Assembly (NCBI GenBank): GCA_008632985.1
Contig: QPGO01000232.1
Coordinates: forward strand, 62,001 to 105,905
DNA: 43,905 nucleotides
Source: Psammoneis japonica
Lineage: Eukaryota
Reading direction: 5' to 3'
This document shows, in pieces, positions 1 through 32,189 of this stretch. The notes beneath the pieces are model-generated. The model was not told where the DNA came from and made no database searches. It saw nothing but the letters and a program-made list of their open reading frames with translations. Made by a program: the position numbers and the translations under genes. Within the stretch, counting starts at the first letter, position 1, and each line of letters starts with the position of its first letter.

Positions 1-166
1 AAGTGAGGGCGTCAATTTGGGTGGGTGAGAACGTGAACAATTCCTCGCATGATTCAATCCCGTTGATGGACAGGGCAGAACGAAGAGGGCTGTCATTGTC
101 TTGATTGAGCACAGTGCCTAGAATGCATTTGAAGCTTTCGGTTTGTTGCTGTCGCGTGAGAACCAT
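1..166 (-). mobile_element. 5' end of the gag ORF of a decayed Ty1/copia (CoDi-like) LTR retrotransposon; continues off the window
   Basis: The minus strand from ATG at 166 reads MVLTRQQQTESFKCILGTVLNQDNDSPLRSALSINGIESCEELFTFSPTQIDALT, resembling N-termini of diatom CoDi gag proteins (recalled, not searched). Upstream are GACTT-rich repeats at ~220-300 and a TGGTCAG PBS-like motif near 455-470; the LTR probably lies in ~472-1100. Confidence 0.5.
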
Positions 167-1399
167 GACGGAGGACGGTGCAGCAGAAACAAAAGACAAG
201 ATCCAATCTAGAGCGCGATCTTGACTCGGAGTTTTGACTTGGAACTTGGCTTGAAAAAGACTTGACTTGAGCTAGACTTGACTTGAAATCTTGGACTGTC
301 TTAAAATCAGAAGTTGCCGGGTTGTGCCATCCCGTTCGTTGTCAAGTGCCAAACTTCCTGTCCGGTCCGTAGAGTTGTGCCGGCACGTCCGAACCCGTGC
401 AGCTGGTGGCGCTTTGGGTTGCTTACGAGCGGAGCAGCGGGTTGTAAACCCCTGCAGGTGAGCTGACCAGAGGTGGACAAGACCCCCGAACCGTTCTTAT
501 TTTATGTCGGTTGGATTTCCCGATCAGGCTGGCCAGTTGACGCAGGCGTCAGGCACTGTGGACGAACGAACAAACGCGGGAAAAACACCCTCGCCCCAAC
601 GCAGGCTGCAATCACGGCTGCTTGCTCTCACAGTCGTCCTCGTGGACCTGGTGGAACTGCAGAGCACCAGTGGTCCGGGGTGGATCAGGTGCAATGGACT
701 CGGTGTGCTTGTAGAGTGGTGGCAAAACCGCAATCCGAAGAGTGGGTGCAAGTTCTTGGCCGTGAAGACATGCACACATGCATGTCTTCAGCGACGAAGG
801 TCCTTGAACATGTGGGGCTCTTGACTGTTAACCGATGAATGGGCACATCAAGGGATGAGGATCAAGGGTGGACTTGGACATGACCGTTGAATGTGTGTCT
901 TCAGCGATCAAAGGCAGTGTGATCAATCCAGATGTCCAGCGACAAGGAGACTTGACGGTGACGTTAAATTCCTGCCGATGCCTGGTGTTGAACGCGCGTA
1001 GACTTGCCGATGCATGTAGAACACACACGGAGGTCCACGCAGAATTGAGGTGGCGTCGTCGGTAAATCAACGACAACGATGGCGGTTGCTCAATGGGTTG
1101 ACAATGAGCAAGACTGTCAATCTGTCAGAAATTGAAGGCAAATGGCAAGAATTCAAACAATGACTCCTTGCTGCTGTCTAAATGGCAGATGAGTCTCCGC
1201 TCAGAGACCGTTGCAGGAGCCGAAAGACGTGTGAGTCGGCATGATCGGGCTGCTGTTGTTGTTCTTGTGAGCCTTGTGGCTCGAAAGCAAACTGCATCGC
1301 GCGCGAACGTGCGGAACTAAAGCACACAAAACTGTGCGCGGCAAACTGGACAGTGCGCGATGTTTCGCGCGCACCTGAATCCTGTTCAAATCCTGTCAA

Positions 1400-1570
1400 A
1401 TGGCGAGAGGCTGAAGACAATGGTTTTGGATGTTCTGTGTCCTTGTCGTCCGATGGAAGCATCGTTGGAGTTGGTGCACGGGGGGCTGACGTCAATGGCG
1501 ACAAGTCTGGATCCGTGCATGCATTCACGGCAAACAACAACCAGAGGTGCATTTTGCATTTCATCCATTT
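1400..1570 (+). pseudogene. Relic of the last FG-GAP blade and 3' end of the receptor gene family
   Basis: Aligns by eye with 23357-23530 and 38520-38690 (EAEDNGFGCSVSLSSDGSIVGVGARGADVNGDKSGSVHAFT vs EAERDWFGHSVSLSADGSFVGVGARNADVNGDESGSAYAFT), including 3' flanking sequence. Confidence 0.85.
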
Positions 1571-1799
1571 GCATTGCTTGCGTCATTGCAATGTTGCATT
1601 TCAAACGACTGATGGTGTCGCAAGTGCTGCAGCAACAAAATGAAACCGTTGATTTGCAATGAGCAGGTCAGTCAGCTCTCCAGTCCTTTTGGTGGCATGC
1701 TGCAAGACATTTGCTGCATCAGTCCATCACATGAGGAGAGACGCAGCTCGGTGTCTAGAGTTGCATTGGCACCTGCCGCTGGCTAGAAATGCTGCTTGC

Positions 1800-2430
1800 A
1801 GCTGACAAGATTCCTGAGCTTTTGGCATTGCAGGTCGAAGTGACAATTTGTTTGTAGACGTGGCATTCGTTCTAAGAAAACCAATGCTTTTGTCCAAACT
1901 GTTGTCTTGCAGATGCTTTTCAGCCTTGTTCATTTCTGTCTTGGCATGAAACAACCTGCTCAATCAAAAATCCGCGCCCATCCACCCCAACAAAATGGCA
2001 CAAGTCATGGCAATCACGGGTGCCGCGCTGACAATGTTTTGAAAGAACATGGCCAACCCTTGTTGAATGAGAGAGCCGCCACTCTTGCCAATGCAAGAAC
2101 CCAACACATCAATCACAGCCTTGCCCTTGACTTTGGATTCCTCATCAAGTGGAGTGTGCGCCAGCATTTGTGTTGTGGGTTCAAAGCACACACAGAATTT
2201 GCGTTGAAACTTGTGCAGAAACTTTGCAACCAAGGGGAACATTGCCGACAAGAATGACAAGCATGTCAACCAAAAAAGGTTGGCACCAAATGCGCGAGAT
2301 TGCTTGTGATGACAGAACAAAAGCATGCCAATGAAAAACGCAGTTGGAAAGGGCAGGCAAGAGCCATCATCATTGCACCATCTGAAAAAGGCATCGTTGG
2401 TGCAAGAGCTCATGCAGACAAACATGCAGG
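1800..2430 (-). pseudogene. NTT: Hypermutated 3' fragment of a plastid-type nucleotide transporter (TLC/NTT family), with 3' flank
   Basis: FEPTTQMLAHTPLDEESKVKGKAVIDVLGSCIGKSGGSLIQQGL is the NTT C-terminal motif with Y->H. The DNA is colinear with 8460-9000. Confidence 0.85.
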
Positions 2431-4438
2431 AATCTGTGAAACCAAGGCAGAAATGCAACACGATCCTGAAAAAGCTTTGCGGCTTGCAACTGCCTCCGGC
2501 AAAGCTCTGCACATGATTGTGATGGGAAACCTTTGTCATGTGAACATCTGAACAAATTAGGATTTTGCAGCGTGCTGCCATTTCCTTGCGATTCACATGA
2601 CAACCACTTCACATCATCAATTGGTGCTGCTTGTGCAGTCACAAAGTCAAAAGATGTTGTCAAAAACAACCACACACTGTCATGGTGACTTGTGCAAAAA
2701 CCCTCATGTTGTTGCTCCACAAAGAGTTGTGCGCGCAGCCTCAGAACTTGATGTGATGCGAAACATGCCCCTGTTGCAAAGCAGGTTGCAGCTCTAGATT
2801 GTGACAATCTGGAACCAGTTTTTGCTGGAAAAGGGGTTTTGAACAATTGAGCACAGTTGTGTGAGTGCAGAAATGGTTTCTTCAGCACAGATGGGGCTGC
2901 TGTCAGTGTCATGATGAGTGGCTTTAACAGGTCATCATCACACATGATGTCAACATCTTTTTGCACATCCCAGTGCTTGCATGGCGACAAACAAGCCTTG
3001 TCTTCCCATTGTGAAGATGGAGTGCACAGTTCCCTGAGGCACTGGCTTTCTGGCTGCAGCTGTGGTGGTTCTAGATCAAGACAATCCAGAATTGTGGCAT
3101 CCACAGACTGCGACAATCTGGAGTTGAGTGGCTCTAGATTGGGACAAATTGGAGACTGGGAACAAGCAAAAACATCTGGAGACATCATTCTGACATTGCT
3201 GGGAAGTCATTTTTGAAGAAAAGGTTGCAACAAACAGTTTGGTCTGTTGCATGTTCACAATCTGCAATCAGTGAAATGACCAGAAACAGCCCTTTTTGGG
3301 GATGTTCCAGGAACTGCAGCAACATGTGCGTCAAGATAGAAACACAGACAGACGTGCCAGCCACCAGTTGGTTGGTCAGTTGGCTTGTCAAAAGCTCACT
3401 CAAAAAACCACATCACAGCACAGCAGCACCATGATCACAAGAGACTCTCACATGACAGCAAAAATGCAATCTCCAAGAGGCAGAGCAATGGGCTTGCTTC
3501 ATGCTGACATGCTGTGAGATGAGTTTTTCAACGCACAGACACAAACACCACACCGCAGTCTGCACAGATTCTATGACAAAAGAGCCATGCAGAGGAGAGT
3601 GCCAGCCATCTCCAGGGCAATGAGAACCTCACCTCAAGCCATTTTTTCTTTTCCACTCACAGCATTAAAGCTGTCACAGATTCCACAAGGTGGCATGCCA
3701 TGACTGAGCATCACACAAAAAAAGCAAATTGAACGCTCACCCTTTTCTCATTTTTTCACTTTTTGCAGAACAACAACACCCACCAACATGAGCCGCTCCA
3801 ATGACCCACCGCAAAATTCCCCTGCAAGCACAGCAACAATGACAACCATGTGTGACAGACATGGTGGTGCCAGCAATGGCACAACTTGAAGGATGATTGA
3901 GACAAAACAACAAAGCAAGAGGTTGAAAAATGTTGCAAATCTGCCTGTTGCAACAGCGAGGAAGCTGTGTGTGGTGCAGAACAGATGTTGACTCCCAGCT
4001 TTTGTTGCTCATCACTGCCAGCAAGAGCAGCAAGAGGAAGCACTGCAGCCATCTCCTGGAGCCACTCCAGTCCTCAAACTTTTGCTGTTGGTCAAGGAAA
4101 ACAGGAAGTCCAGCAAAAGAACAGGCTGCTGATGAAGGTGTCACTCATTTTGGCACCCAAAGTGGTGTCGCCAATGCTGTGTCCACAGCAACCTGCCACT
4201 GCTGATGACAGCCCTCTTGTGCATGCTGAAGCACATTTGGCCAAACCAAGGGAGGGTGCTGTGGAGCATTTTGATGCACAAATGGCTCAAGTGTGGCAAG
4301 ATGTTGAGTGTCTTCAAATCAACTGGTTCTCTCCACCCAACAAGCAGCAAGCAGAGGTTGCTCGGGGTTGGTTTGGTGCCCCCCAGTGGGGCAGAGCACA
4401 GAGTGCACAGAGTCTGCAGACAATGCAGAGTCAACCAG

Positions 4439-4779
4439 CAGCTCCCAAAAGTCTGCCCGACATAGACGCCCGCAGACTTGTGCTGGTTTTTTGTCAAAAG
4501 TCTGCCCGTTCGGAACGCAGCTTCTACATGATTTTTGCACTGGTGCACCTCATGAACCGTGGGCTTTTCTGCGTGATTTTTTGTGCGGAGTTCGTGCAAC
4601 GGAAATCAAACTGAACATCTCATGAGCCAGTGGCCTTTTTGGGATTTGTTGCATGCACAATGTGCCAGATTCTTGTGTGCAGATGCAAAGGTAGAAAAGA
4701 CAAACAAACACACTGGGAACTTCAGCAAAATTCTGCACAATCGGGCAGACTTTTGTCGCGGGCAGACTTTTGGGAGCTG
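4439..4779. mobile_element. MITE-like element, 341 bp
   Basis: Perfect 21-bp terminal inverted repeats CAGCTCCCAAAAGTCTGCCCG (4439-4459) and CGGGCAGACTTTTGGGAGCTG (4759-4779). Extra subterminal AAAAGTCTGCCCG copies at ~4497 and ~4742 (inverted). Flanked by a CCAG direct repeat (4435-4438, 4780-4783). Confidence 0.8.
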
Positions 4780-4789
4780 CCAGTCAGCA

Positions 4790-5235
4790 GCTGCTCAAAA
4801 CAATGATGGTGTTGAAGACATTTGCAACAAGATTCATTGTTGCAGGTGCTTGCTTGTTTTGGAAGTCACACCGGTGTTGACAGCTGCTCCAACGATGCTT
4901 GTTCCTGTTGCTCCAGCTCCCTCTTGGGTCATTGTGCTTCCAAAGCCCATGGAAACAAGTGGGCAAATCTCACGTGGAAATGATGCAGAAGATCATTTTG
5001 GCTGCTCCGTTTCCTCATCTTGCGGTGGCAGCACCATGGCTGTTGGAGCAAATCAATGGAGCTCTTCCTGCCCTGTGGTTGTGTTGGCACATTCCAAGCA
5101 CCCAGCAGTTGCAGTGGATTTGCTGCACTGCACAAAAACTGTGCACGCAGAAATGGATGTCACAAGATTTGCACTGGCCCAAAACAGTTGTGTGGTGCAT
5201 TGGATCCAACACAGGCCCTGGTGTGTTTTTTGTTT
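4790..5235 (+). pseudogene. Deleted, decayed paralog of the receptor gene (juxta-TM, stalk and FG-GAP pieces)
   Basis: ATTCATTGTTGCAGGT resembles the TM start at ~21411, and LEVTPVLTAAPT resembles SEVSTSTAAPT. GNDAEDHFGCSVSSSCGGSTMAVGANQW matches blade 1; ATGGCTGTTGGAGCAAATCAATGG is identical to 22387-22410. Confidence 0.75.
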
Positions 5236-5769
5236 CCCTCCTCCTGGATCAACCCAGGAGGAGGGAAGTCAATGATGGCAAGCTCCTCCTCCCCTTTGCT
5301 GTTGGCCATCTTGGTGGTCTTGGCTTCTTTTTGCCATCAACCGCTCTTTGGAATTTTGCTCTCCTCAACTTGTTCTCAACCTGCCAAGCCTCCTTGGCTC
5401 CACTGCTTTCTGTTCCTCCAGCCCACATGCGCTGGCCTCTCTCCCTCTCTGCCCCTCTCTGCCCACCTTCCTTCTGCTGATTTCACCTGGAGTTGCCTTT
5501 CCAGGGGCTGCTTTGGCAGCACACATCACTCTGCCTTCCCACCCCAGTGGGCCATTCAGACACTTGGTTGGGCACAACCTGATGCTCCATCCTTTGATGC
5601 TTGCCCTTTGCTTTGCCTCCTCCCTGCATGCCAACTCCTCTCCCACCCCCTCTGCCAACCACCCTGCGCACTGCACCATGAGAGCTTTTCACAGCACTGA
5701 ACACCGCCACAACCCAGCTGCTTCTGGCAGCATCAGATGCTGACCTCAACACATGGCAAGGACAAGAAG

Positions 5770-6045
5770 CAACATCCAAGAAATGGGGTCAATTGGGAAG
5801 TCCACCATCAGTGTTCACAGTTCAGTTGTGGCAGTGGGCGCGCCTGGAAGCAACAACGGAGTTGTTGCATGTGAGCACGAGACAACAAGATGTCCTCTTC
5901 TTGGAGTCACAAAGCCAAGCTGCAGCTTTGGCTGGTCTGTGTCATCAAGCACAAATGACGGCACCTCAATGTGGAAAGCAGCTGGCATGATGTGGGCTGC
6001 AAACTGTGCGGGTCAAGTTGGAGTCTTTCAGAGCAATGCCGACAT
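5770..6045 (+). pseudogene. Decayed FG-GAP propeller fragment (blades ~5-6)
   Basis: VVAVGAPGSNNGVVACEH...SFGWSVSSS...AGQVGVFQSNAD parallels IVAAGAVGSNDRVLVYSY...FGWSVSLS...AGQVQIFQYDVNAD. Confidence 0.65.
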
Positions 6046-7050
6046 CTCCAAACACCTTGTCTGCAGAAAGGAGCCTCTTTGCAGCTGGCGCCCATTGCAG
6101 CAGCAGTTGACCCAGCTCCACACTTGCAACTCGCCCCTTCTTGTGGCATTGCAAGCAAGGGCAACAGCAGCAACAGCACATGGCTGGGACAACAGCGGCT
6201 GAAGTTGAGAGGGTCATCAGCACACTTTGCACTTCAGCGTCGACTTGAAGTCTGTTGTTTGTGTGAAAACAGTTCTGCGGTGCATGGCAGAAGCTTCCAG
6301 GGGAGCAAAGCCACCACAAGCTCTGGCAGCCAGCGGGCACTCTGCATTTTTGTCACGCCCCACATGCCCATTTTCAAGTCACATTGGTGTTGTCAAATGC
6401 ACACACCCCAGCCACGTGCAAACATTGGCCATGGCTTGTGTGGCTTCAAAAGTCTCTCTCCAGTGCAAAAAACCCACAGCTGGGTGAACAAAAAACACTG
6501 CTTTTGATTTGGTGGAGCATGATGGCAGAGGCTGTGGAAGCTGCAAGACAGACAAAAAGGCAAAACAAGCTTGTCTGTTTTGTGCCAAGTTCTCTGCAAT
6601 GTGCTGGGCATGATGTGAGTGACGGGCAAGGGCACAAAGACACAAGGCCTGCTCCACATCTCGCTGCTGACGCAGCAGGTGCCTCAAGGTGCTGTGACTT
6701 TTTTCATCTGAGCAGGGGGCGGCGAAGCTCTTGTGTTCTCACACAGGTGGTGCTCTTTTGTTCATTTGACAAGCTCTCTTGGTCTTGCCCTCTTCAGTCA
6801 AGATCAAACACGGGCCGCTTCAAGACAATCTGCCAGCCAGGATTTGCGACAATGGCGCCTGCTTTCTCTGCTGTCTTTTGTTGGATGTCTTGCCCCGTCA
6901 AAGGCGTGCACTTGAGATGCCCAACTGAGATCTGTTTGTTGTGTGAGCTGAACAGCCACCAGCAAGCTCGTTGGCGGGTGCCACAGCTGCAGCGTGGCTT
7001 TGTGTGTGCTGGCATCCCGGCATCATCTTTGTGGCCCGGGCCCCCCCCCN

Positions 7051-7056
7051 NNNNNN
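7051..7056. other. Assembly gap (N x6) inside a poly-C run
   Basis: nnnnnn flanked by C homopolymers. Confidence 0.98.
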
Positions 7057-7611
7057 CCCCCCCCCCAGCTCTTTTTCTGCAGGCGCCTTGGCAAAGGGCA
7101 CAGACTGCACTTTGTTGGTTGTCCCTGGGGCTTTGACCCAGAGATTGCCGATTGCCATTGTCAACGTGTCGAGGTCGCTCGAGTTAAGTGCAAAAGTGCC
7201 AAGTGGAGGCGGGCACTTTCGCCGCATCACTGCAGGATTCTCGCCCGCATTGCAGATGAATCCGCGTTCATTGCGGTCTTGCTTCAACCACCGTGTCAGA
7301 AGTCAGAATAATAATTCTTCGTGTCAAAGCAGCGTGTCATAATGATAATCCGACTGACACCGGGCTTCTCGTTTCTCACAAAACAGCAACATTGATAAGG
7401 CATTGCTCTAAGTGTTTCTACCATACCAAACACAAAGTGCTCTATTTGGCAAAGGTATGTTTAATTATTGCTGGGGGTTGGGCTATGAAAGTGATGCGTA
7501 AAGCGAGGAAAATTGACGGTCGATACGAACAAGCGCGTGATGAGGGTCGTTCGCTCCTTTGACAGCAACTCGTATCACCCTGCACCTCTTCCTTTCCACA
7601 GAACCAAAAGC

Positions 7612-8292
7612 ATGTCCGCAACCAAGAAAGACGTTGAGGAAGGTACCCCTACCGAACAAGCGACGGGGTCTCCTCCTGCTCCTGTGCCACAGCTTAAGAA
7701 GGGTCCTCTCCTTGCCCTGCTCGCTCTTTGTTTGCATTGGGTGTTGCTGGCACTGCTGTGGGCAGTGTCGCCCTCAAGAGGCCAACGATGTGAACAGCGA
7801 CATGGATCAGCTCAGCAAAAAGGGCCCTGTGATGGAGAGCGCACTTTCATTCAGAGCTTCACGTTTCCTCCGATATTCGTGCCATCTCCAAACACCATGA
7901 CTCATGTCCCGGCATGGGATTTCGTGGATCCATCTTGGTTCGGAACTCCTGGAAATCGTGTCATTTACCACAAGGACCCCATGTACGATGGTGGCACCGC
8001 TGACTTTGTCGCTGCCACTCCCATTGGATACATAAGTGGCGTAGAGACGTTCATCAAGCCCGTGACAGATCCGACAGACTTTCCAGTGAATTATATGTAT
8101 GCAACCGCTCAGCTTAATGGGTTCGAAGGAGACTTCACCTACGCTGGCATTATTGAAGGCAATGGTAGTGCTAATAAGCTCTCCATTTTGGGAGGCACAG
8201 GCTACTGGGAGAACTTTTCTGGCCATGTTGAGGGTCAGTTTGACGTTGAAAACTTGCAGTTCTCCGCAAAGATCTATCAGACGTGCCAGTAA
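7612..8292 (+). CDS. Putative membrane-anchored dirigent/allene-oxide-cyclase-like beta-barrel protein (probable indels near the N-terminal hydrophobic segment)
   Basis: ATG at 7612, normal Tyr content, hydrophobic stretch near the N-terminus, and C-terminal LSILGGTGYWENFSGHV resembling the I-x-GGTG-x-F/W motif of dirigent/AOC barrels. An alternative frame LGVAGTAVGSVAL extends the TM segment, suggesting frameshifts at ~7735-7830. Confidence 0.55.
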   Translation: MSATKKDVEEGTPTEQATGSPPAPVPQLKKGPLLALLALCLHWVLLALLWAVSPSRGQRCEQRHGSAQQKGPCDGERTFIQSFTFPPIFVPSPNTMTHVPAWDFVDPSWFGTPGNRVIYHKDPMYDGGTADFVAATPIGYISGVETFIKPVTDPTDFPVNYMYATAQLNGFEGDFTYAGIIEGNGSANKLSILGGTGYWENFSGHVEGQFDVENLQFSAKIYQTCQ

Positions 8293-8589
8293 GAGCAGAC
8301 TGCAATTGCTGGCTAGAGTGTGGATCTGAAGGATTTGTTTTTTTCCCTTGTGTGCGAGATGACGACTGCCTGTGATTTAGGGCTTAGTGTGCGTATGATG
8401 ACGAGAATGGATTAGTTGAATTCTTTTATGCTCTATAGTGCACTGCTTGCAGCTAAAAAGGTTCCTGACTTTTTAGCGCTGAAGGTCGGAGTGACAATTT
8501 GATTGTAGATAAGGTATCCGTTATAAGAAAACCAACGCTTTTGTTCCACGCCGTAGTCTTACTGATTCTTTTCAGCTTGTTCCTTTCAG

Positions 8590-9770
8590 TCTTGGCATGA
8601 AACAAACTGCCAATCGATGAGCCGAACCCATCCACCCCAACCAGACGGTACACTAAATCACGGCAACCACGGGAGCCGCATTAATCATGCTTTCCAAACA
8701 TACTACCAACCCATGTTGAATAAGCGAGCCACCGCTCTTGCCAATACGAGATCCAATACATCAATTGCAGCCTTGCCCTTGGCTTTGGATTCCTCATCTA
8801 GTGGAATGTACGCCATTTGTGTCGTGGGATCAAAGAGCGCGTACTTGGACGTTTTGCTTATACCGTAGTAAAGATTGGACCGTTCCAAAGACAACCGTGG
8901 CGGATAGACGTGTATGTGGGGCTACCGTCGAGACCCAACAAGATACAAGCAAAGAACGGTAATGCTAGTACAGCCATGATCCCCGGTGTCGCCATGGCAC
9001 CCACCCTCCATCCCAAGATTCGAATCACGTGCACGCCAAAGGAAATTGACAAATGCACACATGGATACAGCCCCACGGCCAACGAGAAGTTTCCCATGAA
9101 GCGCTAATACTCGGGTGGGTCGGAATATTGTTTCTTGACGAGTGATTTCCAAATGATTTCGGTAAAATTAATCGACAATCCGTATACCCCAACACCAAGG
9201 CTGCCAGAAACAAAAGAGCTTCGACTTGCTCCAGACCGCTACCATTTTCGAGTACAGTGCAATAAAGGCTGTTGCGGTAGGAAAGAGCTCCGTTAGTCTA
9301 TTGAAACAACAAGTACTTTTATTGCGTGAGAGTGCGGTGGTTGAGAACAAACATACCAACATGCCGTGCATGCTGTACACCTCACCTTTTAAAAATGCAA
9401 TAGCTGCGGTTCCACATTGCGATATTGCTGTACACCTCACCTTAAAAAAATGCAATAGCTGCGGCTCCACATTGTGATACTGCAAAAGTGTCCTTGGTGT
9501 CTTGTGTAATTGTCAACGTCCGTGTCGTTGATAGTGGCAATGGAAATGTTGTGCTCGTCAGTGAGGCACCTGGTTACACGCCCGGTACTTGTTTCTCCCG
9601 GTGGTTGTTGGCTCCTTTGTGTATCCCGTATTCGAATCCACAAAAGGTGAAGAAGACGACCGCGGTATCTGCATCGCGCACCATCATAACTCCAGCTATT
9701 ACCTGAAGATATTTAGAAAAAAAGAACATCATGGAGCTCAAATTCAATGAGTGGTAGTTAAGCTTTGTTC
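8590..9770 (-). pseudogene. NTT: NTT (TLC ATP/ADP translocase family) pseudogene with internal deletion
   Basis: Contains TQDTKDT..QCGAAAIAF, PTATAFIALYSKM, YGLSINFTEIIWKSLVKKQYSDPPEY*RFMGNFS (in-frame stop), LGWRVGAMATP and KYALFDPTTQMAYIPLDEESK. Also frameshifts, a ~55-bp tandem duplication at ~9370-9480, and loss of the central TM region between YSKM and LVLGY. Confidence 0.85.
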
Positions 9771-11191
9771 CTGGGCATTGCGGTTTCTTCAGCAGCCTGT
9801 TGCCGTCGCACATCCTCTGCTTCTCGTGCAGCAGCACGGGTCCGTCGTCGAGGCCCAACTATACTGCGCTCTGTAAAGTGGCATATAAAGCTTCTCCACT
9901 TGTCGATTGGTAATGTTGTCCCAAATGCCGTCAAAGTTGGCTTGGCATTTGGGCGGTGTATTCACCACACAAATCGACTCCCAATTTCCTACATACACGG
10001 GCAAAGCTCGACAGGTTGTAACTTCCAATATCGGTGTACGTATCGGTAATAAGGGATTTCTCATGCAAATGGACCTTATTACTCGATTCGCACGGGGAGT
10101 CTGTTGGGTTTCCTAGACGAATTTCCATGTTTTCGAGAAAAAACACTTTCCCATGTTGATCAACAAATCCTTCCAATGCTATCTTTTACTCTTGTCATTT
10201 GGATGAAGGATAATTCTGACATCACGCGACCATCCGGCATGAACGAGCAAATCAATCGCTATATATCGGATTTGTCAGAGAGAGTAGCAGAAAAGGCGCA
10301 CCACAGAATTATACGTGGAGCAGCGTCAAGGACCCAAGCGATAACTCGGAGCGGATGATCTGCTGGAGTCCTTCGAGGATCACCATTCAGGTACGATAAT
10401 AGTGACTTGGGATGGGAACAAATAAGTACCGCTCTTCCGGTGTATATTTGGGCCTTGGTAAAAGCTGACAAGGCGGGTATCGAAATATACCTCTCCTCGT
10501 TGCAAATCTGGGGTCAACGAGGCGTAATACTGTTGTATATGAGGAAATGTATCGTCATCATCAGCCTCGTTGAAATGCTCTTCGAAGCCTTCGGCGTCCT
10601 CGTCAAATAGGCGGTGATCTTCCGCATGAGTGCAATAATTTCCTTATTCAACACCATATCTTATAGCGGAACTCCTACTTCAACTCGTGGAGTATTCGAC
10701 TGTCTCGTATCTCGTTGTCGCGTGATGCTGTTGACGTCGATGATAAATATTGTTGTTTATCACTGTTGAAGCTGTTATCGTTTGCTGTTGTAGTTGTTGG
10801 ATTGATTTGATGTTGTTGTGGCTGCGATTGAAATTTTAGGCTCCCGTGCTGATTGTGCATCCTTATTTCTGATAGAGCTACACGGGCAGCTCTCAAAGAA
10901 CAGTCATTAGAGGGAATGAATCGAATCATTATTTGCAGTTCTTTTGACATTGGTGCAAGGACTGCATCAGCAGCGACAACAAGATAGTTGTTGAGTTTCA
11001 AGGGTAGCGCAATCGTCGCGGTTATGCTATGAAATGATGCAGCTAACAATAAGGCGCAACGCCACGACTATGCTTTCAACACTATTCAGTCAGAAAAATC
11101 TTGCGCTAGAGAAGGCGGTCTTGCCAGCTTTTGGTCTCTTTAGGAATGCGGATTTAAAGTATGCACCTAAATTTTACTCTGAAGAAAAAGA

Positions 11192-12966
11192 CTATCGTGC
11201 AGCAGAGGCGACGGTGTAGGTCCCAGAGCTTGAGTTGGGATTGCCGCAACTCTGCAAATCCACACAAATGGCAGAAAAATTGTCGCCAGATCCGCGTGAC
11301 CTACAATGATACAGATGGGATATACACAATGACAAGAACGTGAGTGTGGTCCCCGGAACAATACACAGTAAATCGTTATCATGCGACAAACGTATGCAAA
11401 ACAGGTGTGGTATCAAAACTTACCTGGCATAATTGCACAGTTTCTTGGCGGTCCACTTGAAGCGATCTGTATCTATAACTAAATCATGGTTATCCTCGTC
11501 TTGTAGTAGTGCCGTGGTGCTTTCAGGACAAGACTCATTAAGGACAATTCTTGCAGCTTCTTCATTGCTAACAGTATCCCAAACTCCGTCACTGGACAAA
11601 ATGAGGAACAAATCGTCGGGTTGCACGTCGTATTCACAAACCTCGGGTTCGGCCGTCACGTAGGGTTTGAGAGCTGCATCGCCAATACCACGAGACACTG
11701 CGAGCAGTCCTTCGACACGCCACTGCTTTTGCCAAAACACAACCTTACCACCCAATTCTTCAATGCGTGTTCGTTCACTATTGGCACCGGGTTTGTGATC
11801 ACGACAGACGCGAACAACCGACCCGTCTTGTTTGACGACAATGGCACGAGAATCACCCGCATTGGCACAAACAATACGCTTCCCTCCGACAATCGACACG
11901 GTACAAGCCGTCGTTCCGTCGGCATTGCCGGTTAAACAAAAATCTTGATCCATGACGGTGTACGTATTCTTCATGGCAAGTCCCAAATCGTGTGGATAGG
12001 TACGTTGATTCTTGAGATAGGACGACATCCAATCGGCACAATACTGACTAGCCTTATCACCACCGTGTCCATCAAAGATACCAAAAAAGGAAATGGGCAT
12101 TTTGACTCGAGTCTTGATGGGTACAACGTGATTGGAAGTATCATCCATGTCGCTGTCTACAGAAACACTGCTGCTGCTCATCAACTCGACTTGTACCGCA
12201 CCCATACTTTCCACGACATATCTGAGTACAAAAAAATAGAGTGAGTAAAGAGAACACATTTCCACATCCGCAGTATTCTACAAAACACTACTACTCACCG
12301 ATCCTCCATATAAGGACGCATACCGACGTGACTCCAATGACTGACATTGAGACGGACACCATTGGGTCGTAACGAACGCTTGGTTCCTTCGGGCGGTTGT
12401 GGCAAAGAGCCATCACCAATGGACGTTCGTAGAGAATATCGAATATCCGATACAATGGATCTTGGTGATTCCAACAAGACTTGTGTATCCATTACGGCAC
12501 TGGAATATAACAAGCTGGAGTCGTCGTCGTTGTCGTCTTTTTTGGATCGTTGTCGTGGCGGAGTATTGAGTGGCGAGGGAGGCTCGGTCCTGGTACTTTT
12601 ATCCGATGGAGATCGTGTTAGAAATCGTGGTGCCAATGAACACGATTTGGTCGGCTTATCGTCGCGATCCTTTTCGTCATGGTCGTCGCTGTAGAGTGTA
12701 TACGATCGATCTTGATTGTTGTTGTTGCTGCTGCTGTTCATTGGTTTGACTGTCGTTCTTGTTGTAGTATCGTTCAAAAAATCCCAACTACTACTACTCG
12801 TCAACAAACTCTTGCGTGAACTCCAGAGCGAATCCCATGAATGCTTTCCGTCGTTATCATTATTGTCATCATCATTATGATCATCCGACAGACGAATCTG
12901 TTCCACTTCGGTGGCTGTGAGCAATCCTACCGATTCGTTTCGTTTGGAACGACGTTGTAGGACCAT
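11192..12966 (-). CDS. PP2C/PPM-family Ser/Thr phosphatase; exons 12966-12299, 12221-11424, 11300-11192
   Basis: Motifs GMRPYMEDR, FFGIFDGHGG, GTTA, ANAGDSRA, DHKP, LAVSRGIGD, LILSSDGVWD and GSGDNFSAICVDL. The GT-AG introns at 12298-12222 and 11423-11301 keep the frame. Long disordered N-terminus. Confidence 0.93.
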
Positions 12967-14268
12967 GATGCTATTTTTCGTTTATGTGGGGGGAGTTGCT
13001 CCTTTTGTTCTCATTAACAGCATGAATGACAAGCATACACCTAAGGATCGCAATGTAATATTAAAAGAAGAGTGAGCGTGAATTCTGGGGCCGCAAACAT
13101 TGACGGGTTTGACAAAAGCAGAACAGAAAAACAAACATGTTGTGCGTCTGTAGCGTCTGTCTCAAATTACTATTCAACAGTCAAGAAAACACACAAAATA
13201 AAGAAACGATTCATCACAATCCACCAATGAAAAGAAGAAGCAAACCGCATATGGGAGGCGGTGCGCAACGTGAATCAGTCGCATACTACGGTAGGTTCGG
13301 AGTCGCGTTTTCTCTTTGTCTCTCTTTTTCGTTCCATCATGTATTTTGACTCGCTTCTCTCTCAAGCGACAGACACTGCTGTAATAGCTCATACGAAACA
13401 GTCACTACGAGATAGTATCAGCAACATATTCTCTCATTGCTCCACCATCACCTTACCATATTCCAACAATCGACAACAACAAGATGCGTCGCAGCCATTC
13501 AGCAGACTTTTTGTTCTTCAACCCGAGGATGGAAGCACATGCAACGGGTCGCGTTTGGGAGACCCGGCTTTGATGTAGAATCTACGTCTCTTCTCGTATG
13601 TACCGCATGTTGGCGGTTGGTGGACTCGCAAAACTGACTTATCCACAACCAATGTATTTATACAAAATTATAGAAAATTATAAGAGGTGTTCAACGGAAA
13701 GAGCCGTAATGGCCTCAATACAAACTATCATACTCCCCATTCACTATCCAAAATGACTACTCTCCATAATTTTTGGATCGGGTCCGTTGAATACATTATC
13801 AAAAAGACTGCAAATATACTTTTGAATTGTATACGAATCTTTTGAATCCTATTTAAAATGCGTTTCGAACCGCCCGGATCGCCAATTTGAATTTTTGCGT
13901 TCAATTTTTTCATCGTTGGCAAAACATCCTCACAAAAACCGAACCGCATCATCATGACCAAGAAAAACGCCGTACCGTGGTTGTCGTCGTCATCATTCGC
14001 ACAGGAGGATGATTGGGAAACAAACATGTCATTAAAACCATCCATGCCGAGTGATGATGATTTGGATCAAGTGGTATGTATCGTGTTTGTCGTGTTTCGG
14101 AGTAAATGATGGTTTGTGTATCGGAGAAACAATGAGACATTGGCGATGACGCGCGTCATCATTACGAGGCCATTCTATTGTGCATGAGGCTTCGCATTTT
14201 TGTTTTTGGTTTGCGTTTCGTCAACAACAATACGGCTCACACTACTAGTTATTGCTATTACAACAAAT

Positions 14269-16810
14269 ATGCAGCCACTGTACAAGGTCCAACCCAAGTC
14301 GGAACAACGATCCGTCTTTGAAAATGCCCGCAATCATGTCAAGCCCGGAAGCTTTTTCCAATTTCTAACCTATCTCTACGCGGAACGCAAGTTTATTCTT
14401 GTCATCTTGATTCACTTTGTTTGTACCATGGTTATTTGGGGTGAGTAGAGTATATTGTATGATTGAGTTGTGTGTATGATTTGCTTACTAATCTCAAACA
14501 TACCGCCGCACCTCTATACCGTACTCCATCACATTACGTACGACAGCCACTTCTTTGTGGTCAAGTTTCATCAGCAAGAAAACAAAGTACCCGAGGACGC
14601 CAATCGCTATTGGTGGAAACGTCTTGCCCCGCCGCTCGAGTTTGGAGCCATGCATGCCATTTTGTTTCAAATGGCACTCCTACCCCTCACCATGGCTCGG
14701 CTCTCTATCGCGGCCGCGTCCAAAACCTCTCTCAACACGTACTTTCCATTCAACAAGAGCCAGCGCATTCATATTCATTTGGGATACGTCTTTGGGAGCA
14801 TTGTTGTGATTGCCACTATTTTCTTTTTTGCCTTTTTTGGATTGCTTTGTTCCGATGGCGAACAAGCTTTTGTGACAAGTTTACGTCGGAAATCATGATT
14901 ACGGGGTACATTACCGTGGCCTTTGTCTTGATTATCTTGTCCACGTCATTTTTTCGGGATTACATGCCATACGAAGTCTTTTATGGCATTCATCATTTGG
15001 TATTTGCCATGTACCTTGTGGTCTTGTTGCATACGATTGATATCAACGTGCGAAAGGACGGACAGAATCGGAGTCAAACCTTCAAGTGGTTTTCGGCGAC
15101 GCTCTTGTACTACGTGTCGGACCGCCTTGCCATGCGCTTAATCATCGCTACAAGACGCGTGTCTTGCAAGCCAAAATTGTCAAGAATACAAAGTCGAGCA
15201 TGATTTTGCTACAGCTCAGACGACCCTCCTTGTTTCAATACGAACCGGGTCAGTATGCACATCTGCGGTTTCCCGACATTGATTCGTATTGGCATCCCTT
15301 TTCGATTGGTAGCAGTCCGGATTCCAACGTGTTGGAGTTTTATATTGAAGTCTATGACGACAAATCGTGGACGGGACGACTCTGTCAATTGTTGGGTAAT
15401 GACGTTAGCCACGAGAATGTTCGTGTTCAAGTCATGGGCCCGTACGGAACACGCTTGGGTGATACTCATCGATACTCTCATGCCATGGCTATTGGCAGTG
15501 GTTCTGGTGTCGTTCCTATTTTGGGTCTCTACAAAAAGCACATTTGTCAGCTACTTCGATTGGATCCACAAACATACTTTGAAGAACAAGCACAGATGCA
15601 TTCACAACTGAAGCGTATGGAACGAGCGCGAGAACAAACACGCGGGTCGTGGCTCAACTACTTTTTGCGGTGTTCACCTCAACCGACGCGACACGAAATG
15701 GGTGTTATTTCTGGAATCTTTGATTCGAGCGATGCCGAAACCAAGGACTTGCGAGAGGCGGCCAAGCGTGCGTCTTTAACCATTTATGGCGTCAATATAT
15801 TGATGCAACTGGTTGTCTTGGGAGTTACCATGTTGGGATTGACCTTATCGTGGAATACCATGCCGTTTGAACTCTACGACGGCATGCGAGAAGTGTTGAT
15901 TGTTGGCTCGATTGTGTTTCAAGGCGCCTTTGCCGTTGTGTCGATTGGATACTGGGACCGCGGCTCGTTGCTGGCGTATGTTGATGTCTTGATTGTCATT
16001 GCTGGTGCCGTGGCGAATTGGTATTGGTTTGAATACGACAAGTGGGCTAACTTTGAAGCGGCTGAACATGTGTATTATATCTTGCTGTTTGGATACATGA
16101 CGGCGCGATTGTGGCATTCGGCCGTCAAGCCACGATACTGTTCGTTGCGGAGCAGTTTGGAACGACAACACACGAGTTCAGCATTGGACAAGCTGCACTT
16201 TGTTTGGATTACGCGTTCATCCACCAACGTTTTGAAGATTGCACCCACAATCATGCAAGAATGGAATGCGCTTGTTGCGGCGTGGGGATTGGAGAATGCC
16301 GTCAAGGTGTGTCAGGTTTCTATTTACGTTACCGACAAGGACAAGGCCGCCGTGGACTATCTCAAGCAGGAGTTGTCCAAGATGCCCCTTTACAAGCAAG
16401 GTGCATTCCATTATGAGCGTCCTGACATTTCCAAATTGTTGGAAGAGCATGCCATGGAACGCATTTATGATGAGAGTCGTCCCACCTCGTCTACCCTCTT
16501 GTGCTTTTGCGGATCTCCCAAGCTATCATCAGTGATAAGCAAAGCCAAGACCATTGTGGATATATCAACAATGATTACGGGAAACAAGTACCACCAAATG
16601 GATTTCGTTTCCGAGAGTTACAGTGCCTACACGAAGCGTCCGTCGTCGTCGAACAATAGCAACGCGGTAGTTGTCGCTGCCTCGGCAAAGACGCCACAGT
16701 ACAGTGTCTTTATGGATTCACCCAGCTTTATGGAGAAGCAACATTCGGGAGATGAATTGGATACGACGGATACCTTTGAAGACAATGAGGACCACCTTAT
16801 TTCCATTTGA
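14269..16810 (+). CDS. NOX: NADPH oxidase / ferric reductase-like (NOX/RBOH) copy 1; exon 1 14269-14440, intron 14441-14546; three 1-bp indels (~14547, ~14869, ~15137)
   Basis: Heme-ligating His in TM helices (IHIHLG, GIHHL..LLH), PGQY, WHPFS (FAD), GPYG, GSGSGVVP, LHFVWITR and CFCGSP (NADPH). Four extra TM helices lie inside the NADPH domain, as in red-algal/diatom NOX. Indels inferred from copy 2. Confidence 0.9.
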
Positions 16811-17019
16811 GACTACAGAGGATCGTGGACGGCACGCAACTTTAGAATTGTTTTAGTTTACCTTGCGCATTTATAATTTATAACTACCTCAGCATACATT
16901 GATTGTCTTCAGCCTGTGATTCATAACTACCCCAGCATGCATTGATCGATTTCAGCTTTTGTGTGTTAGTCTTTTCAATTGAGAACTAGATGCATTTACA
17001 ATGCCTCCAGTTCCATTTG

Positions 17020-17950
17020 AGATGTGCATCTGGCTTTTAGAGGCACATGCTGGGAAGCCATTTTGCTTCATTTTTCCTTGAGCAACTTCCACAAGAAGCT
17101 CGAAAATGCCCAACCTGGCCTGATTGCGAAAGTTCTGCGTGCAGCCAAGATGGAAGACTGCAATGGATCTCCAACTCCTGCCCTTCCCATCTCTGTTGGC
17201 AGTGACACAGAAGGCCCACCATTCGATGAACCTTGTGACTGCCGATCTGTGGTTGGCATGTTGATGCATCCAGTGCCCAACAGCCGTCTGGACATCATCT
17301 GCACTACCCATCAATTTGCTTGGTTCTCCTGTGCTCCAAAAGCCTCCCATGCCATTGCTGTCCAATGCATTCTTTGACACTTGAAGGACACGACTGACAA
17401 AGGGCTCATCCCAGCCCCAACCATGGATCAACGACTTGATTGTCATGTTGATGCCAATTTTGTGGGTCTCTTCCATGTTGAGGATGGACAGGTTCCTGCT
17501 TCTGTTAAGTCTCGCACAGGATGTCCAAGCTGCAGCGGCCCCTCATGGTTTTGTCTCTGCTGTTGGAGGCAGAGAATGTTTCTCTCCCAATCAATGCATG
17601 GCCTCATTCCCCTTTGTGAGATCTTGAAGGAAATCAATGCACATGCTTTTGGTCAGCTGGACAGGAAGAATGGCATCACCACACATGCCAAGGCTTTCCA
17701 ACCCACCAACGATGGAACCAATGCACCCCCCATTGCCTCTGCCAGCATCAGCTTGCTCACACGCCAAAACTGTCCCCACAAACCAAGCACACCATCGTGC
17801 CTTGTCACCAGTTTTGTGCTGAAGTTGAGGCTTTGGAGATCAAGATTGAGCCTGTCAGCTCTGCTGCACAGCTTGCTGACCAGTTTGCTGGGGGTTTGAC
17901 TGCTGCTGATCTGTTCTGCACTTGTTGTGGGGCCCTCATGGGCTGGCGAC
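17020..17950 (+). mobile_element. Decayed Ty1/copia RT-RNaseH fragment, copy 1
   Basis: QPGLIAKVL..MEDCN..PTP, DCRSVVGMLMH, LDCHVDANF, SVKSRTG, QLADQF and LMGW are copia pol C-terminal motifs, with Tyr->Cys/His changes, stops and deletions. Confidence 0.9.
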
Positions 17951-19060
17951 TGTTTGTCCTGCTTCTCTTGATTTTGCAGGCAGGCTGTGAGAAAATGAGT
18001 CAATTTGCTGCTGTTCTGTTGCTTTCCCCAAACAACAATGGCAAGTCTGCCACCCGTGGCAGAATGTGCAATCAAGGAATTGCTGCGGCAACATGAAGAA
18101 AACGCAGCAAGCCACCAAGGAAGAAGAGTGTCCGTCAACGGCTGTTTTGGAGGTCCTGCTTCACTTGAGCTGCACCAATGTAAAAGTGATGCAGGCTTCA
18201 CACTTTTTCATCTTGCAGTCTTCTTTGCAAACATCCTTTTGAAATGCCTGGCACCACGTGCAAAGCTTTTGGGTCCATCAGGAATGAACCGCTCTCACAG
18301 CTCTTTTTGTGCTCGATCGACGACAATGGGGTGAACAACCCAAGGTCCAAATTGTCATGGGTCTTTTTGGCAAATGCAAATGACTGTGCACCAGAGTGGA
18401 GTGGCTTTCCATGAGACAACAAACGCCAACGTTGGAAGACAAGGGTGGGTCTTTTTTCAACAATGGCAGACTTGACAACATGCATTGATTGACCGAGGTG
18501 GCAAAACATGCCACGTGTGCACCAACAACAGCATCATCATTTCTGCTCGACAACAACAGGGGATGATTTCGATTGGTGTTGTTGGTTTGGTTGTTGATGT
18601 TGAAGTGAAGTGCGGCATTGGCGGCCTCTCTTTTTGGCACGCACCGGCCGGCTGGCACGCACCGGTGTGACTGCACCTATGTGGGTGACAGACGGACGGA
18701 CCAACCGGATGGCCACATAGTACGCCCGCCTAAAACCAACATGCGTGCAGCGCAACGCTTGAACCGCACGATCGTTCATCGCGGGAATAAGCATGCAAGC
18801 AGTTGGAAGTTGAAGTTATTGGTTATTGTTCTGTTGTTCTTCTGTTGCTTCATTTAATTCGTTCCTGCCCTTGTCTCACGGGCAAGCGTCGCTGTTCTAC
18901 AGCATAATCGATCTCGCCTTGTTGCCATTGTGTTGGTGCCTGTCTCCTTTGCAGTTGCGTTTCTGCTGAGCAGAGGAACCACCTCTTGTCTCGCGTCTCA
19001 CCGATCCGGACTCCGCAATTTTGATTCTGCATCTCGCAGAAAGACACAAAAACAGCAGAC

Positions 19061-22000: not shown

Positions 22001-23502
22001 AAGTTTCAACCAGCACAGCTGCTCCGACACCGTCACCTACAAATAGCATTCCAATTACGGAACTACCAACACAAGATCCCGCGTCGCCACCGTCGACTCC
22101 GGGTCCAACGACTCTCAATCCAACATCGTTGCCGACGACAAACCCTACTCCTCGTCCAACTCTCAATCCAACACCTCGTCCTACACTCAATCCAACGCCT
22201 CGTCCAACTCTCAATCCAACTCCACGCCCCACTCCATCACCAGCTCCAACAACACCCAATCCCACCAGTGGTGGTGGCAGTTTGCCGCCAAATGGCCCAT
22301 GGGATCCCGTCGGACAAGTCTTGCACGGCAAGGCTGAAGATGATCGTTTTGGCAAATCCGTGTCCTTGTCTCGTGATGGCAGTGTCATGGCTGTTGGAGC
22401 AAATCAATGGGCATCACCTTCCAATCCCGGCTATGTTGTTGTGCAACGATACAATCCAAACACCCAACAATGGGAACAAATTGGCCAAGAATTGATTGGA
22501 CAAGCCGATCATGACGATTTTGGCAATTCTGTTTCGTTAAATGGCGACGGCACAATTCTTGCGGTTGGAGCTGATGCAAATGACAGTGGTGGAACAAATG
22601 CCGGTCACGTTCGTGTGTTTGAATACAACTCGGCATTGGATCGTTGGGTTCAACTCGGCAGTGACATTCTTGGACAAGACGCTGGTGATTTATTTGGTGA
22701 TTCCGTGTCGCTCTCGGACGCGGGAGACATTCTTGCCGTGGGAGCTTACGGTGATGACACGGAAAATGGCGACGAATCTGGATCGGTTCGATTGTTTCGA
22801 TACGACCGCGGCTCCTCATCCTGGAACCAACTCGGACAAACTCTCATTGGTCAAGCTGCCTATGATTATTTTGGAATTTCCGTTTCGTTGAATGCGCAGG
22901 GAAACATTGTTGGTGTTGGAGCGAGTGGAAATGATGCGGGTGGAAACAATGCGGGTCAAGTGTTGGTGTACGAATACAATTCTGCGTCATCAAAATGGGA
23001 TCCGCTGGGTGATCCAATCAATGGCCAAGTCATTGAAGGCATATTTGGACATTCTGTTTCTCTTGACGACAGCGGTTTGATCGTGGCCGCGGGTGCACTT
23101 GGATATAACAACGAGAGGGTTTTGGTTTATTCGTACAGCCGCTCGACTTTGACATGGAAGCAACGTGACCAAACTCTCTTGACACAACAGCCTGGCAACA
23201 CAATTTTGGTTGGTCCGTGTCATTGAGTGGCAATGGAAATGTCTTGGCGGTCGGAAGCATTGGGCATGACGTCAATGGATTGATCAATGCGGGTCAAGTT
23301 CAAATCTTTCAGTATGACGTCAATGCAGACGAATGGAAGCAAGTTGGAGATGCTTTAAATGGCGAGGCTGAACGTGATTGGTTTGGACATTCCGTGTCCT
23401 TGTCGGCCGACGGAAGCTTCGTTGGAGTTGGTGCACGGAATGCTGACGTCAATGGCGACGAGTCCGGATCGGCGTATGCATTCACAGTAAATGAGGAATT
23501 AG
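19061..23502 (+). CDS. Receptor-like kinase copy 1: MLKL/HeLo-like N-terminal helical domain + TKL kinase + TM + Pro/Thr stalk + 7-blade FG-GAP propeller (~1480 aa after correcting 1-bp indels at ~19830, ~23195, ~23495)
   Basis: Joins ORFs 19061-19846, 19831-23226 and 23217-. Kinase motifs GAGTFG, VAIK, HRDLKPEN, DFG, APE and DQYSFG are present. TM FIIPGVVLLAIAAIVSIVVAV follows RKYLRKR. Seven D-x-FG-x-SVSL...AVGA repeats. Copy 2 is open across each indel. Confidence 0.85.
20831..20938 (+). repeat. 54-bp coding tandem repeat (DLRVQKEQSASSRRKKRP x2); also at ~36008-36115
   Basis: Direct repeat visible in DNA and protein. Confidence 0.9.
22108..22235 (+). repeat. 24-bp coding repeats (PTLNPTPR) forming a mucin-like stalk; also at ~37282-37410
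   Basis: Repeated ACTCTCAATCCAAC units in frame. Confidence 0.85.
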
Positions 23503-31980: not shown

Positions 31981-32189
31981 GACTACAGAGGATCGTGGAC
32001 GGCACGCAACTTTAGAATTGTTTTAGTTTACCTTGCGCATTTATAATTTATAACTACCTCAGCATACATTGATTGTCTTCAGCCTGTGATTCATAACTAC
32101 CCCAGCATGCATTGATCGATTTCAGCTTTTGTGTGTTAGTCTTTTCAATTGAGAACTAGATGCATTTACAATGCCTCCAGTTCCATTTG

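Follow-up and report, generated by a model that had tools for sequence, protein, structure and literature searches.

A domain-limited loss of TpA in the diatom Psammoneis japonica and its likeness to TpA hypermutation in Bigelowiella natans

A mutational process directed at the dinucleotide TpA has been described in the chlorarachniophyte Bigelowiella natans. In mutation-accumulation lines of this organism, 231 of 302 nuclear mutations lay in integrated DNA of a giant virus and a virophage; all but one of the 231 were A to G or T to C changes, each of these 230 being at TpA, and the mutation rate measured in the lines was about 1000-fold over background (Mettrop et al., bioRxiv 10.64898/2026.01.13.699255, 2026). 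The accessible text of that preprint also counts 124 genomic clusters that are poor in TpA and rich in CpA plus TpG, finds in a separate analysis that reverse-transcriptase and DDE domains are enriched among TpA-depleted predicted coding sequences, and favours adenine deamination, for which an ADAT2 homolog is proposed (10.64898/2026.01.13.699255). Here we describe a saturated footprint of this kind in a 43,905-nt stretch of the diatom Psammoneis japonica (contig QPGO01000232.1, positions 62,001 to 105,905), called the window below. Judged from that footprint, the process recorded in the window is of the same kind as TpA hypermutation in B. natans, which would then be known from another lineage, one far removed from the first and dominant ecologically.

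A preliminary description of the window had left open whether such a process was already known. It was, for B. natans, as of April 2026, and not for diatoms in that paper, the word "diatom" occurring 0 times in the accessible preprint text (10.64898/2026.01.13.699255). Our full-text literature search returned this one description overall and no report of TpA-directed hypermutation in diatoms. For diatoms themselves, the available part of a mutation-accumulation study of Phaeodactylum gives a bias from GC to AT and reports no TpA hotspot (PMC6604790), and the RID-related DNMT4 enzymes that diatoms possess concern cytosine, according to the portion of the source at hand (PMC9998398).

Erased blocks and the direction of change

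With borders set from the gaps between TpA steps, three blocks of the window have lost nearly all TpA. Block A (1319-7185; 5,867 bp) retains 15 TpA (rho 0.04), with a CpG rho of 0.33 and CA and TG at 1.77 and 1.79. Block B (17039-18678; 1,640 bp), which lies between a NOX gene and an MLKL_N-kinase gene, retains 3 (rho 0.03; CpG rho 0.36), and block C (26937-29215; 2,279 bp) retains 2 (rho 0.02), its first kilobase keeping CpG at an observed/expected ratio of 0.77. Blocks B and C are present twice because of a tandem duplication of about 15 kb; the duplicate of B (32209-33846; 1,638 bp; 99.3% identical) holds 2 TpA and that of C (41918-43905, 1,988 bp up to the window end; 99.4% identical) holds 4. 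In these three blocks and two duplicates, 2-15 TpA stand where about 100-280 are expected, which bears out the near-absence first noticed. The limits given for it were partly right: the three regions stand, but positions 1-1318 (block A0), a high-copy repeat, are merely partly depleted (16 TpA, rho 0.22; CpG rho 0.90), and block C starts near 26774-26937 rather than at 26600.

Counts in 500-bp intervals follow the same pattern. Those of 1501-7000 hold 0-4 TpA each (observed/expected 0-0.11), those of 17001-18500 hold 1-2, those of 27001-29000 hold 0-1, and those of the duplicate blocks hold 1 and 1 (32501-33500) and 2, 1 and 0 (42001-43905); most others hold 13-31 (observed/expected 0.41-0.86), the whole window having 1,237 TpA. 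The longest gap runs from the TpA at 4692 to that at 7185, or 2,493 bp (TpA-free 4693-7184), in agreement with the earlier claim that TA is missing from about 4800 to about 7180, while in the neighbouring 7301-16900 TpA is spaced 20.7 bp apart on average. The borders are sharp, TpA density falling from one per 10-40 bp to zero inside less than about 100 bp. Seven consecutive N (7050-7056) lie 130 bp within the right edge of block A.

TpA rho in the flanks of the blocks is 0.54-0.66. The rho of CA and TG is 1.56-1.79 inside the blocks versus 1.21-1.32 outside, and the four pyrimidine-purine steps, taken together, make up a steady fraction of 0.238-0.256 in blocks and flanks alike. A constant fraction together with a gain of CA and TG is what is expected from transitions within this class, TA and CG becoming TG or CA. 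TpA loss with a matching gain of CpA plus TpG, clustered amid ordinary sequence, is one of the features that mark the B. natans type, and it is present here. In six-frame translation the blocks contain 0-0.06% Tyr, where the sequence outside has 2.1-3.1%, and they are enriched in Cys, His, Trp and Gln; the lack of Tyr and the richness in Cys and His had already been noted from the open reading frames.

The direction of the change was read from three independent pairs of depleted and undepleted paralogs within the window, 676 aligned columns in total. The 23 TpA steps of the undepleted copies appear in the depleted copies as CA (8), TG (7) or another step (6), with 2 kept, so 15 of the 21 changed steps ended as CA or TG. 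None of the 106 TG or CA sites in the undepleted copies had turned into TA. The rate of change at TpA (21/23) far exceeds that of the other 14 dinucleotides (196/604; Fisher p = 1.3e-8). CpG changed as well: of 36 such sites, 13 were kept, 11 became TpG and 6 CpA (17/36 to TpG or CpA). The changes from which the direction had first been proposed can be found in these alignments, GTATGC to GCATGC, GTAAA to GCAAA and TGTATT to TGCATT in that of 1398-1566 with 23357-23525 and AYIP (8802-8813) to AHTP (2150-2161) in the NTT pair; the Tyr-free copia motifs LDCHVD and DCRSVVGMLMH are likewise present, at 17237-17269 and 17435-17452.

Counted per adenine on both strands, A became G at 19 of 47 TpA (40%), compared with 10 of 110 ApA (9%), 12 of 106 CpA (11%) and 7 of 85 GpA (8%). 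Since each TpA step holds two adenines, one per strand, and the loss of either ends the context, the ceiling is 50%; the 40% found therefore amounts to about one hit per step, the site being immune afterwards. The two strands are affected equally, both in the paralog pairs (CA 8 versus TG 7) and in the TG/CA totals of the blocks (630/675 in A, 187/167 in B and 236/221 in C).

An outgroup test on the copia relic of block B gave the same direction. It used 145 high-scoring segment pairs between the relic and Tyr-normal homologs and scored columns with at least 60% agreement among at least 20 homologs. None of the four conserved Tyr was kept (TGC, CAT, CAC and CAT stand in their place, all His or Cys), Tyr having become His by T to C three times and Cys by A to G once on the copia sense strand. 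Conserved Arg was kept in 2 of 6 columns, the other four having become Trp, a TGA stop, His and Cys, all CpG transitions. Other conserved residues were mostly retained (Leu 8/11, Gly 7/9, Pro 6/7, Ser 5/5, Ile 4/4). The change is a transition confined to TpA, with about one hit per step; it is strand-symmetric, near-saturating and domain-limited.

Targets, CpG decay and copies elsewhere

The erased blocks contain a confirmed copia relic, a recombinase-like frame that is a lead, dead copies of host genes and sequence without assigned identity. In block B, blastx and phmmer place the 3' end of a Ty1/copia pol relic at 16988-17955 (+). With phmmer, the read-through translation of 17021-17896 matched 1,614 proteins at E<=0.001 (best 3.2e-34); the matches lie in the C-terminal part of polyproteins of 1,200-2,500 aa, the best being aligned at residues 1052-1203 of a 1,331-aa protein. 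On these sequence matches, block B is confirmed as a fragment of Ty1/copia pol from the region between RVT_2 and RNase H. The relic contains stops, and it lacks a Pfam match because it spans only the portion after RVT_2. By blastx, copia homology in the window is limited to 16988-17955 and its duplicate at 32158-33125.

Block A holds relics of host genes. FG-GAP relic 1 (1394-1538, +; Pfam FG-GAP_2, E 3.4e-06 on 1245-1640) is a paralog of 23351-23525 with about 79% DNA identity and shows TA to CA changes. The C-terminal relic of an NTT (TLC) nucleotide transporter lies at 1792-2608 (-; Pfam TLC, E 3.9e-17), and its part 1792-2186 is 79% identical to an undepleted NTT fragment at 8443-8835 (-; also given as 8443-8894), which is itself frameshifted and served as a reference copy for polarity. 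FG-GAP relic 2 (4946-5065, +) is a paralog of 22297-22416 with a weak Pfam match (E 0.025), and the more decayed relic 3 (5924-6052, +) was found by tblastx against 22870-22995 and 23202-23234. Because these host-gene relics have been erased, the change is regional and took place in situ. Much of the remainder of block A has no assigned identity.

A Pfam scan took in 76 stop-to-stop frames (one of them cut at 7049) out of 100 listed for the three blocks with a length of 70 aa or more; it gave TLC and FG-GAP only, with no RVT or rve. The frame 2373-3206(-) had no match in an ESM Atlas search, Rfam gave 0 matches in the entire window, and a search of 1-7300 for tandem and inverted repeats found none that defines an element. 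At the left end of block C, frame P0121 (26637-27647, -), a 337-aa open frame with 1 Tyr, is a candidate decayed tyrosine-recombinase gene, possibly of a Crypton/DIRS-like element. This lead comes from ESM Atlas features, which match at 0.94-0.96 clusters with Phage_integrase, DUF3504 or DUF3435, the members of one such cluster being mainly Bacillariophyta; P0121 has no Pfam match and no sequence homolog among proteins of 185-590 aa.

CpG is also depleted in the blocks (rho 0.33-0.53), as the preliminary description had observed, but the two losses do not coincide throughout. Over 27001-28000, TpA is at 0-0.04 of expectation while CpG is at 0.77, and the TpA-free zones extend into CpG-dense flanks. 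As CpG is kept where TpA is gone, the TpA process must be faster or wider-reaching than CpG decay and not its by-product. Going by the sequence, CpG decay in the blocks is a separate, second process of the 5-methylcytosine (5mC) type.

The tandem duplication (14338-28927 versus 29496-43905; 97% identity) dates the erasure. Each unit carries NOX, the copia relic, MLKL_N-kinase-FG-GAP and block C. The two copies differ by 207 substitutions with conserved flanks, whose spectrum is ordinary (5' neighbours of A/G differences: C 50, T 31, A 24, G 21), and their genes have ordinary TpA levels. Divergence between the copies is 0.55% inside blocks B and C versus 3.0% outside. The low value within the blocks indicates that erasure is older than the duplication, and that this long, near-identical duplication did not trigger it. 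The earlier suggestion that repeats are targeted by a homology-sensing process resembling repeat-induced point mutation (RIP) is therefore not supported.

Divergence along the unit is uneven, with no differences at about 18500-22000 and many at 14500-16500 and 22500-25000. Each copy also contains a tandem pair of direct repeats of about 455 bp that are 95% identical (25316-26224 and 40299-41208). Contigs of the DNA run X1 have a depth of 190-250 over 15260-20000 versus 30-55 elsewhere; this hints at more than two copies of the unit, contig depth being a poor measure of copy number.

The same footprint is found in copia elements outside the window. Five of the relic's 150 best representative homologs contain no more than 0.33% Tyr, the median being 3.08%. 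These five proteins (P0157, P0171, P0228, P0182 and P0265; 177-2,061 aa; 0-0.33% Tyr) stand in public protein sets as metagenome or Logan assembly records (ENA or Logan). In a TpA-free block TGA is the only stop, which leaves long false open reading frames in all six frames, and erased copia frames stay open because TAA and TAG are impossible without TpA. Tyr-free false "proteins" are thus already in public collections, and TpA-free blocks can mislead gene prediction and composition-based binning.

P0157 is a 2,061-aa open polyprotein frame with a single Tyr and with gag-pre-integrase, RVT_2 and zinc-knuckle domains (PF13976, PF07727, PF00098); its sole named relative is from the diatom Cylindrotheca. 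At the Tyr positions of its Tyr-normal relative P0135 it has His 19 times, Cys 21 times, Phe 6 times and Tyr 0 times, and the other four Tyr-poor proteins likewise have His or Cys in place of Tyr. As its 2,061 codons are intact and yet Tyr is gone, erasure was finished before ordinary decay. One of 114 further homologs of P0157 was Tyr-poor (P0326, 0.89%).

A scan of JGI metagenome contigs, whose search pattern included a Tyr and was hence biased against erased copies, found 4 of 80 loci strongly TpA-poor (L042, L043, L071 and L025; TA rho 0.13-0.18, CG rho 0.09-0.10). In these four, 15 columns mix CA and TG, compared with 3 for the control AC/GT and 1 for AT/GC, which suggests that the copies were hit independently of one another. 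Sorted by codon phase, the TpA of the 990-codon L042 frame number 11 within Tyr codons, 2 within NTA codons and 1 at a codon border, where normal relatives have 38-45, 43-69 and 84-132; at silent sites the frame has 3, against 127-201. The L042 family reads as a still-functional element lineage in which the same TpA mutation pressure has been filtered by selection.

Explanations for the loss of TpA

Given the above, the best overall explanation is probably a domain-limited hypermutation of dead, presumably silencing-marked DNA from TpA to TpG or CpA, with adenine deamination as the leading candidate for its chemistry. Its parts differ in strength. That the process acts in place, on DNA, specifically at TpA and within limited domains is very likely; adenine-deaminase chemistry is a serious candidate that falls a little short of being probable. 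Under this scenario, nuclear domains of 1.6-6 kb with dead mobile elements and dead host-gene copies would be hypermutated in situ, having been picked by a silencing mark (chromatin or small RNA) and not by sequence duplication. A polynucleotide adenine deaminase would turn adenine into hypoxanthine, which pairs with C. The tRNA A34 deaminases (TadA/ADAT2) act on A preceded by U. The outcome would be permanent inactivation, with all Tyr codons turned into His or Cys codons and TA-rich promoter signals lost.

Several points weigh against this explanation or limit its reach. Only 23 DNA sites could be polarised, and all of them come from three pairs of paralogs in a single window. As TpA is its own complement, attack on adenine is indistinguishable from attack on thymine; the part of the preliminary description that stands is the A:T to G:C transition at TpA, and not the claim that adenine is its target. 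Silencing or methylation of the blocks is read solely from their CpG decay. The 21 substitutions that separate the tandem copies of the blocks include 4 of TA<->TG and 8 of CG<->TG/CA, but TG and CA steps occupy about 21% of block positions, and a comparable proportion of TA<->TG is expected from random transitions; these differences do not show current activity, and no de novo events were seen. The L042 family retains 20 of 24 conserved Tyr codons, so TpA-poverty can be carried by elements under selection. Block A0, being TpA-poor, CpG-normal and high-copy, may owe its composition to a master copy that was itself poor in TpA. Of the 4,231 X1 contigs placed on 1-20000, most fall at 1-1318 (90-100% likeness), where the summed word depth is 68,000-195,000, and 1-1400 has no Pfam, Rfam or tandem-repeat identity.

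The rival that survives best, though we think it unlikely, is that the thymine of TpA is attacked. A TET/JBP-type dioxygenase acting on silent DNA would leave an oxidised or modified T (5-hydroxymethyl- or 5-formyluracil) that mispairs with G and gives T to C. At a palindromic TpA the outcome would be the same, with CA and TG in similar numbers, as found in the paralog pairs and in all blocks. 5-Formyluracil causes T to C transitions, and in dinoflagellates 5-hydroxymethyluracil substitutes T mainly at TpA and TpC. Against this, TpC has no excess of change in our alignments, TC (42/53 kept) being among the best kept steps, and nothing in our data speaks for a modified T of this sort in diatoms. 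Adenine deamination is what the authors of the B. natans study favour, as a proposal (10.64898/2026.01.13.699255).

It is very unlikely that the blocks descend from TpA-poor sources, either foreign DNA or transposable-element lineages that avoid TpA, and were not mutated in place. The composition of block A0 and of L042, L043, L071 and L025 speaks for such inheritance, the latter showing that low TpA (silent TpA 3 versus 127-201 in L042) can go with retained Tyr codons. The host relics of block A, however, lack TpA that their paralogs retain, and the copia relic has lost 4 of 4 conserved Tyr and carries stops. We know of no genome composition that gives zero TpA across 2.5 kb. Inherited composition cannot account for blocks A-C and may contribute to 1-1318.

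Two further rivals are highly improbable. In the first, an ADAR- or ADAT-like enzyme that prefers a 5' U would edit retroelement RNA from A to I, and reverse transcription would then deliver copies that are already mutated. The 5' U/T preference agrees, and block B is a copia fragment. Editing of genomic RNA, however, predicts A to G on the sense strand only, and we reject ADAR-type hyper-editing of the transcribed strand as both directions occur in the copia sense strand (His 3, Cys 1), in P0157 (His 19, Cys 21) and in the block totals. In addition, the FG-GAP and NTT host relics and the non-coding flanks in block A are erased equally, and the B. natans mutations appeared while the lines were being cultured, in DNA that was integrated, according to the accessible preprint text (10.64898/2026.01.13.699255). 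The second, raised in the preliminary description, is that 5mC deamination in methylated chromatin sets off error-prone patch repair by a Y-family polymerase (Pol eta, WA motif). CpG decay does accompany TpA loss in most of the blocks, but the Pol-eta signature would include ApA as well as TpA, and transversions too, and ApA is at background level (9%, within the 8-11% of CpA and GpA, versus 40% at TpA). The changes at TpA are mainly transitions (15/21), and the loss is complete at 27001-28000, where CpG is largely retained, and so is independent of CpG deamination. This option was rejected.

The least credible rival is a sequencing or assembly artefact, such as base-calling errors at modified TpA: the 7-N run and indel differences from X1 and X2 contigs in 7471-8752 suggest imperfect polishing, but X1 Logan contigs, which were built independently, agree with block A at all of the 4,793 bp that they cover, the outcome at any one site is fixed as TG or as CA where persistent damaged bases would yield mixed reads, and Tyr-free copia proteins occur in unrelated public assemblies. 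The X1 contigs cover 1469-2136, 2663-4497 and 4751-7040 (668 + 1,835 + 2,290 bp) with 0 letter differences and 0 gaps, and the run holds 89% of the sampled words of 1-7000. X1 is possibly the source sample of the assembly; its reads carry the depleted sequence and exclude an assembler artefact, while they are no independent biological replicate.

Extending hypermutation by adenine deamination beyond the window leads to a wider proposal that we put forward tentatively, as possible and not as probable. TpA-directed DNA editing would be a widespread genome defence of marine eukaryotes of the Stramenopila-Alveolata-Rhizaria (SAR) group, diatoms included, saturating in silenced domains, leaking into repetitive functional genes such as those with FG-GAP, and driving copia lineages to purge dispensable TpA (L042). 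Tyr-free open frames such as P0157 would be its fresh victims, and the enzyme would be a natural, context-specific adenine deaminase of double-stranded DNA.

Neighbouring genes and known systems

The FG-GAP-coding part of the intact kinase gene (21997-23226, +; Pfam), which served as a reference copy, has a TA rho of 0.29 with T3|A1 observed 6 times against 34.1 expected, and that of the second tandem copy of the gene (37163-38665, +; Pfam) has a TA rho of 0.28 with 1 observed against 23.8. In both, silent TpA is scarce while CpG is normal and Tyr codons are retained (12 and 14). The kinase, NOX and PP2C frames of the window have T3|A1 observed/expected ratios of 0.52-0.68. The silent TpA scarcity of the FG-GAP parts could reflect a leakage of the TpA process into repetitive genes, filtered by selection, or gene conversion from erased relics.

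The other genes of the window code for PP2C, for the MLKL_N-kinase-FG-GAP proteins, for the NTT fragment and for an NADPH oxidase. The best named matches of the NADPH-oxidase frame (29725-31980; 751 aa) are diatoms only, with Asterionellopsis at 55% followed by Seminavis, Ditylum, Epithemia, Cylindrotheca and Pseudo-nitzschia, and non-diatoms are far lower, which puts the window in a diatom. None of the sequencing runs listed for this sequence is an RNA run. Run X2 has canonical spliced joints (e.g. 12221/12299, CT..AC) and looks like complementary DNA. No X2 contig covers 2002-7337 or 17343-18676, a gap in cover that is not evidence of silence. At 7443-9027 an abundant X2 contig (depth 405) differs from the window by 17 letters and 9 gaps, and X1 shares several of its single-base insertions, with roughly half the depth. 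In this stretch the window probably has indel errors or represents one of two alleles.

Among known systems, TpA hypermutation in B. natans is matched by the P. japonica window in its A to G and T to C transitions at TpA only, in its discrete regions within an otherwise normal nuclear genome, and in its loss of TpA with gain of CpA plus TpG. The host, however, is a diatom (Stramenopila) and not a chlorarachniophyte (Rhizaria), and the targets are an LTR (long terminal repeat) retrotransposon relic, a possible tyrosine-recombinase element and dead host genes in place of giant-virus and virophage inserts, a difference that adds retrotransposons and dead host genes to integrated viruses as known targets. 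Depletion is also deeper (rho 0.02-0.04 versus 0.45 in the nucleocytoplasmic large DNA virus region of B. natans) and is accompanied by CpG decay, and the raised rate is read here from a footprint where it was measured in mutation-accumulation lines there. Some diatoms are transformable and gene-editable, so that the enzyme and the targeting signal could be tested.

Fungal RIP, as in Neurospora, resembles the process in P. japonica in that dinucleotide-specific transitions wreck the coding capacity of selfish DNA within sharp regional limits. RIP differs in direction, as the preliminary description had recognised for both RIP and 5mC decay: it changes C to T, mainly CpA to TpA, and creates TpA, whereas here TpA is removed and 0 of 106 TG or CA sites became TA. 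RIP is triggered by duplications of roughly >400 bp at >80% identity, while the 15-kb tandem duplication at 97% identity is untouched and gives no sign of homology sensing. RIP was rejected as a candidate on both counts. Decay by 5mC deamination is present in the same blocks, where 17 of 36 CpG became TpG or CpA and Arg turned into Trp, Cys, His or a stop, but it cannot remove TpA and is slower or narrower than the TpA process. By removing TpA through A:T to G:C change, the process in P. japonica is the mirror image of the classical defence mutators, RIP, APOBEC and 5mC decay.

ADAR hyper-editing of repeat-derived dsRNA and the TadA/ADAT2 enzymes likewise turn A into a base that reads as G and favour a 5' U or T, a likeness also drawn in the accessible text on B. 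natans (10.64898/2026.01.13.699255). They differ in that they act on RNA, whereas the change in P. japonica is heritable, lies in DNA on both strands and includes sequence that is not from retroelements. We know of no ADAR- or ADAT-type enzyme that has been tied to a TpA process in any organism. TadA and ADAT2 are the parents of laboratory adenine base editors. If the erased blocks are indeed the work of an enzyme that deaminates adenine in DNA, this would be the first one from nature and of direct relevance to base editing.

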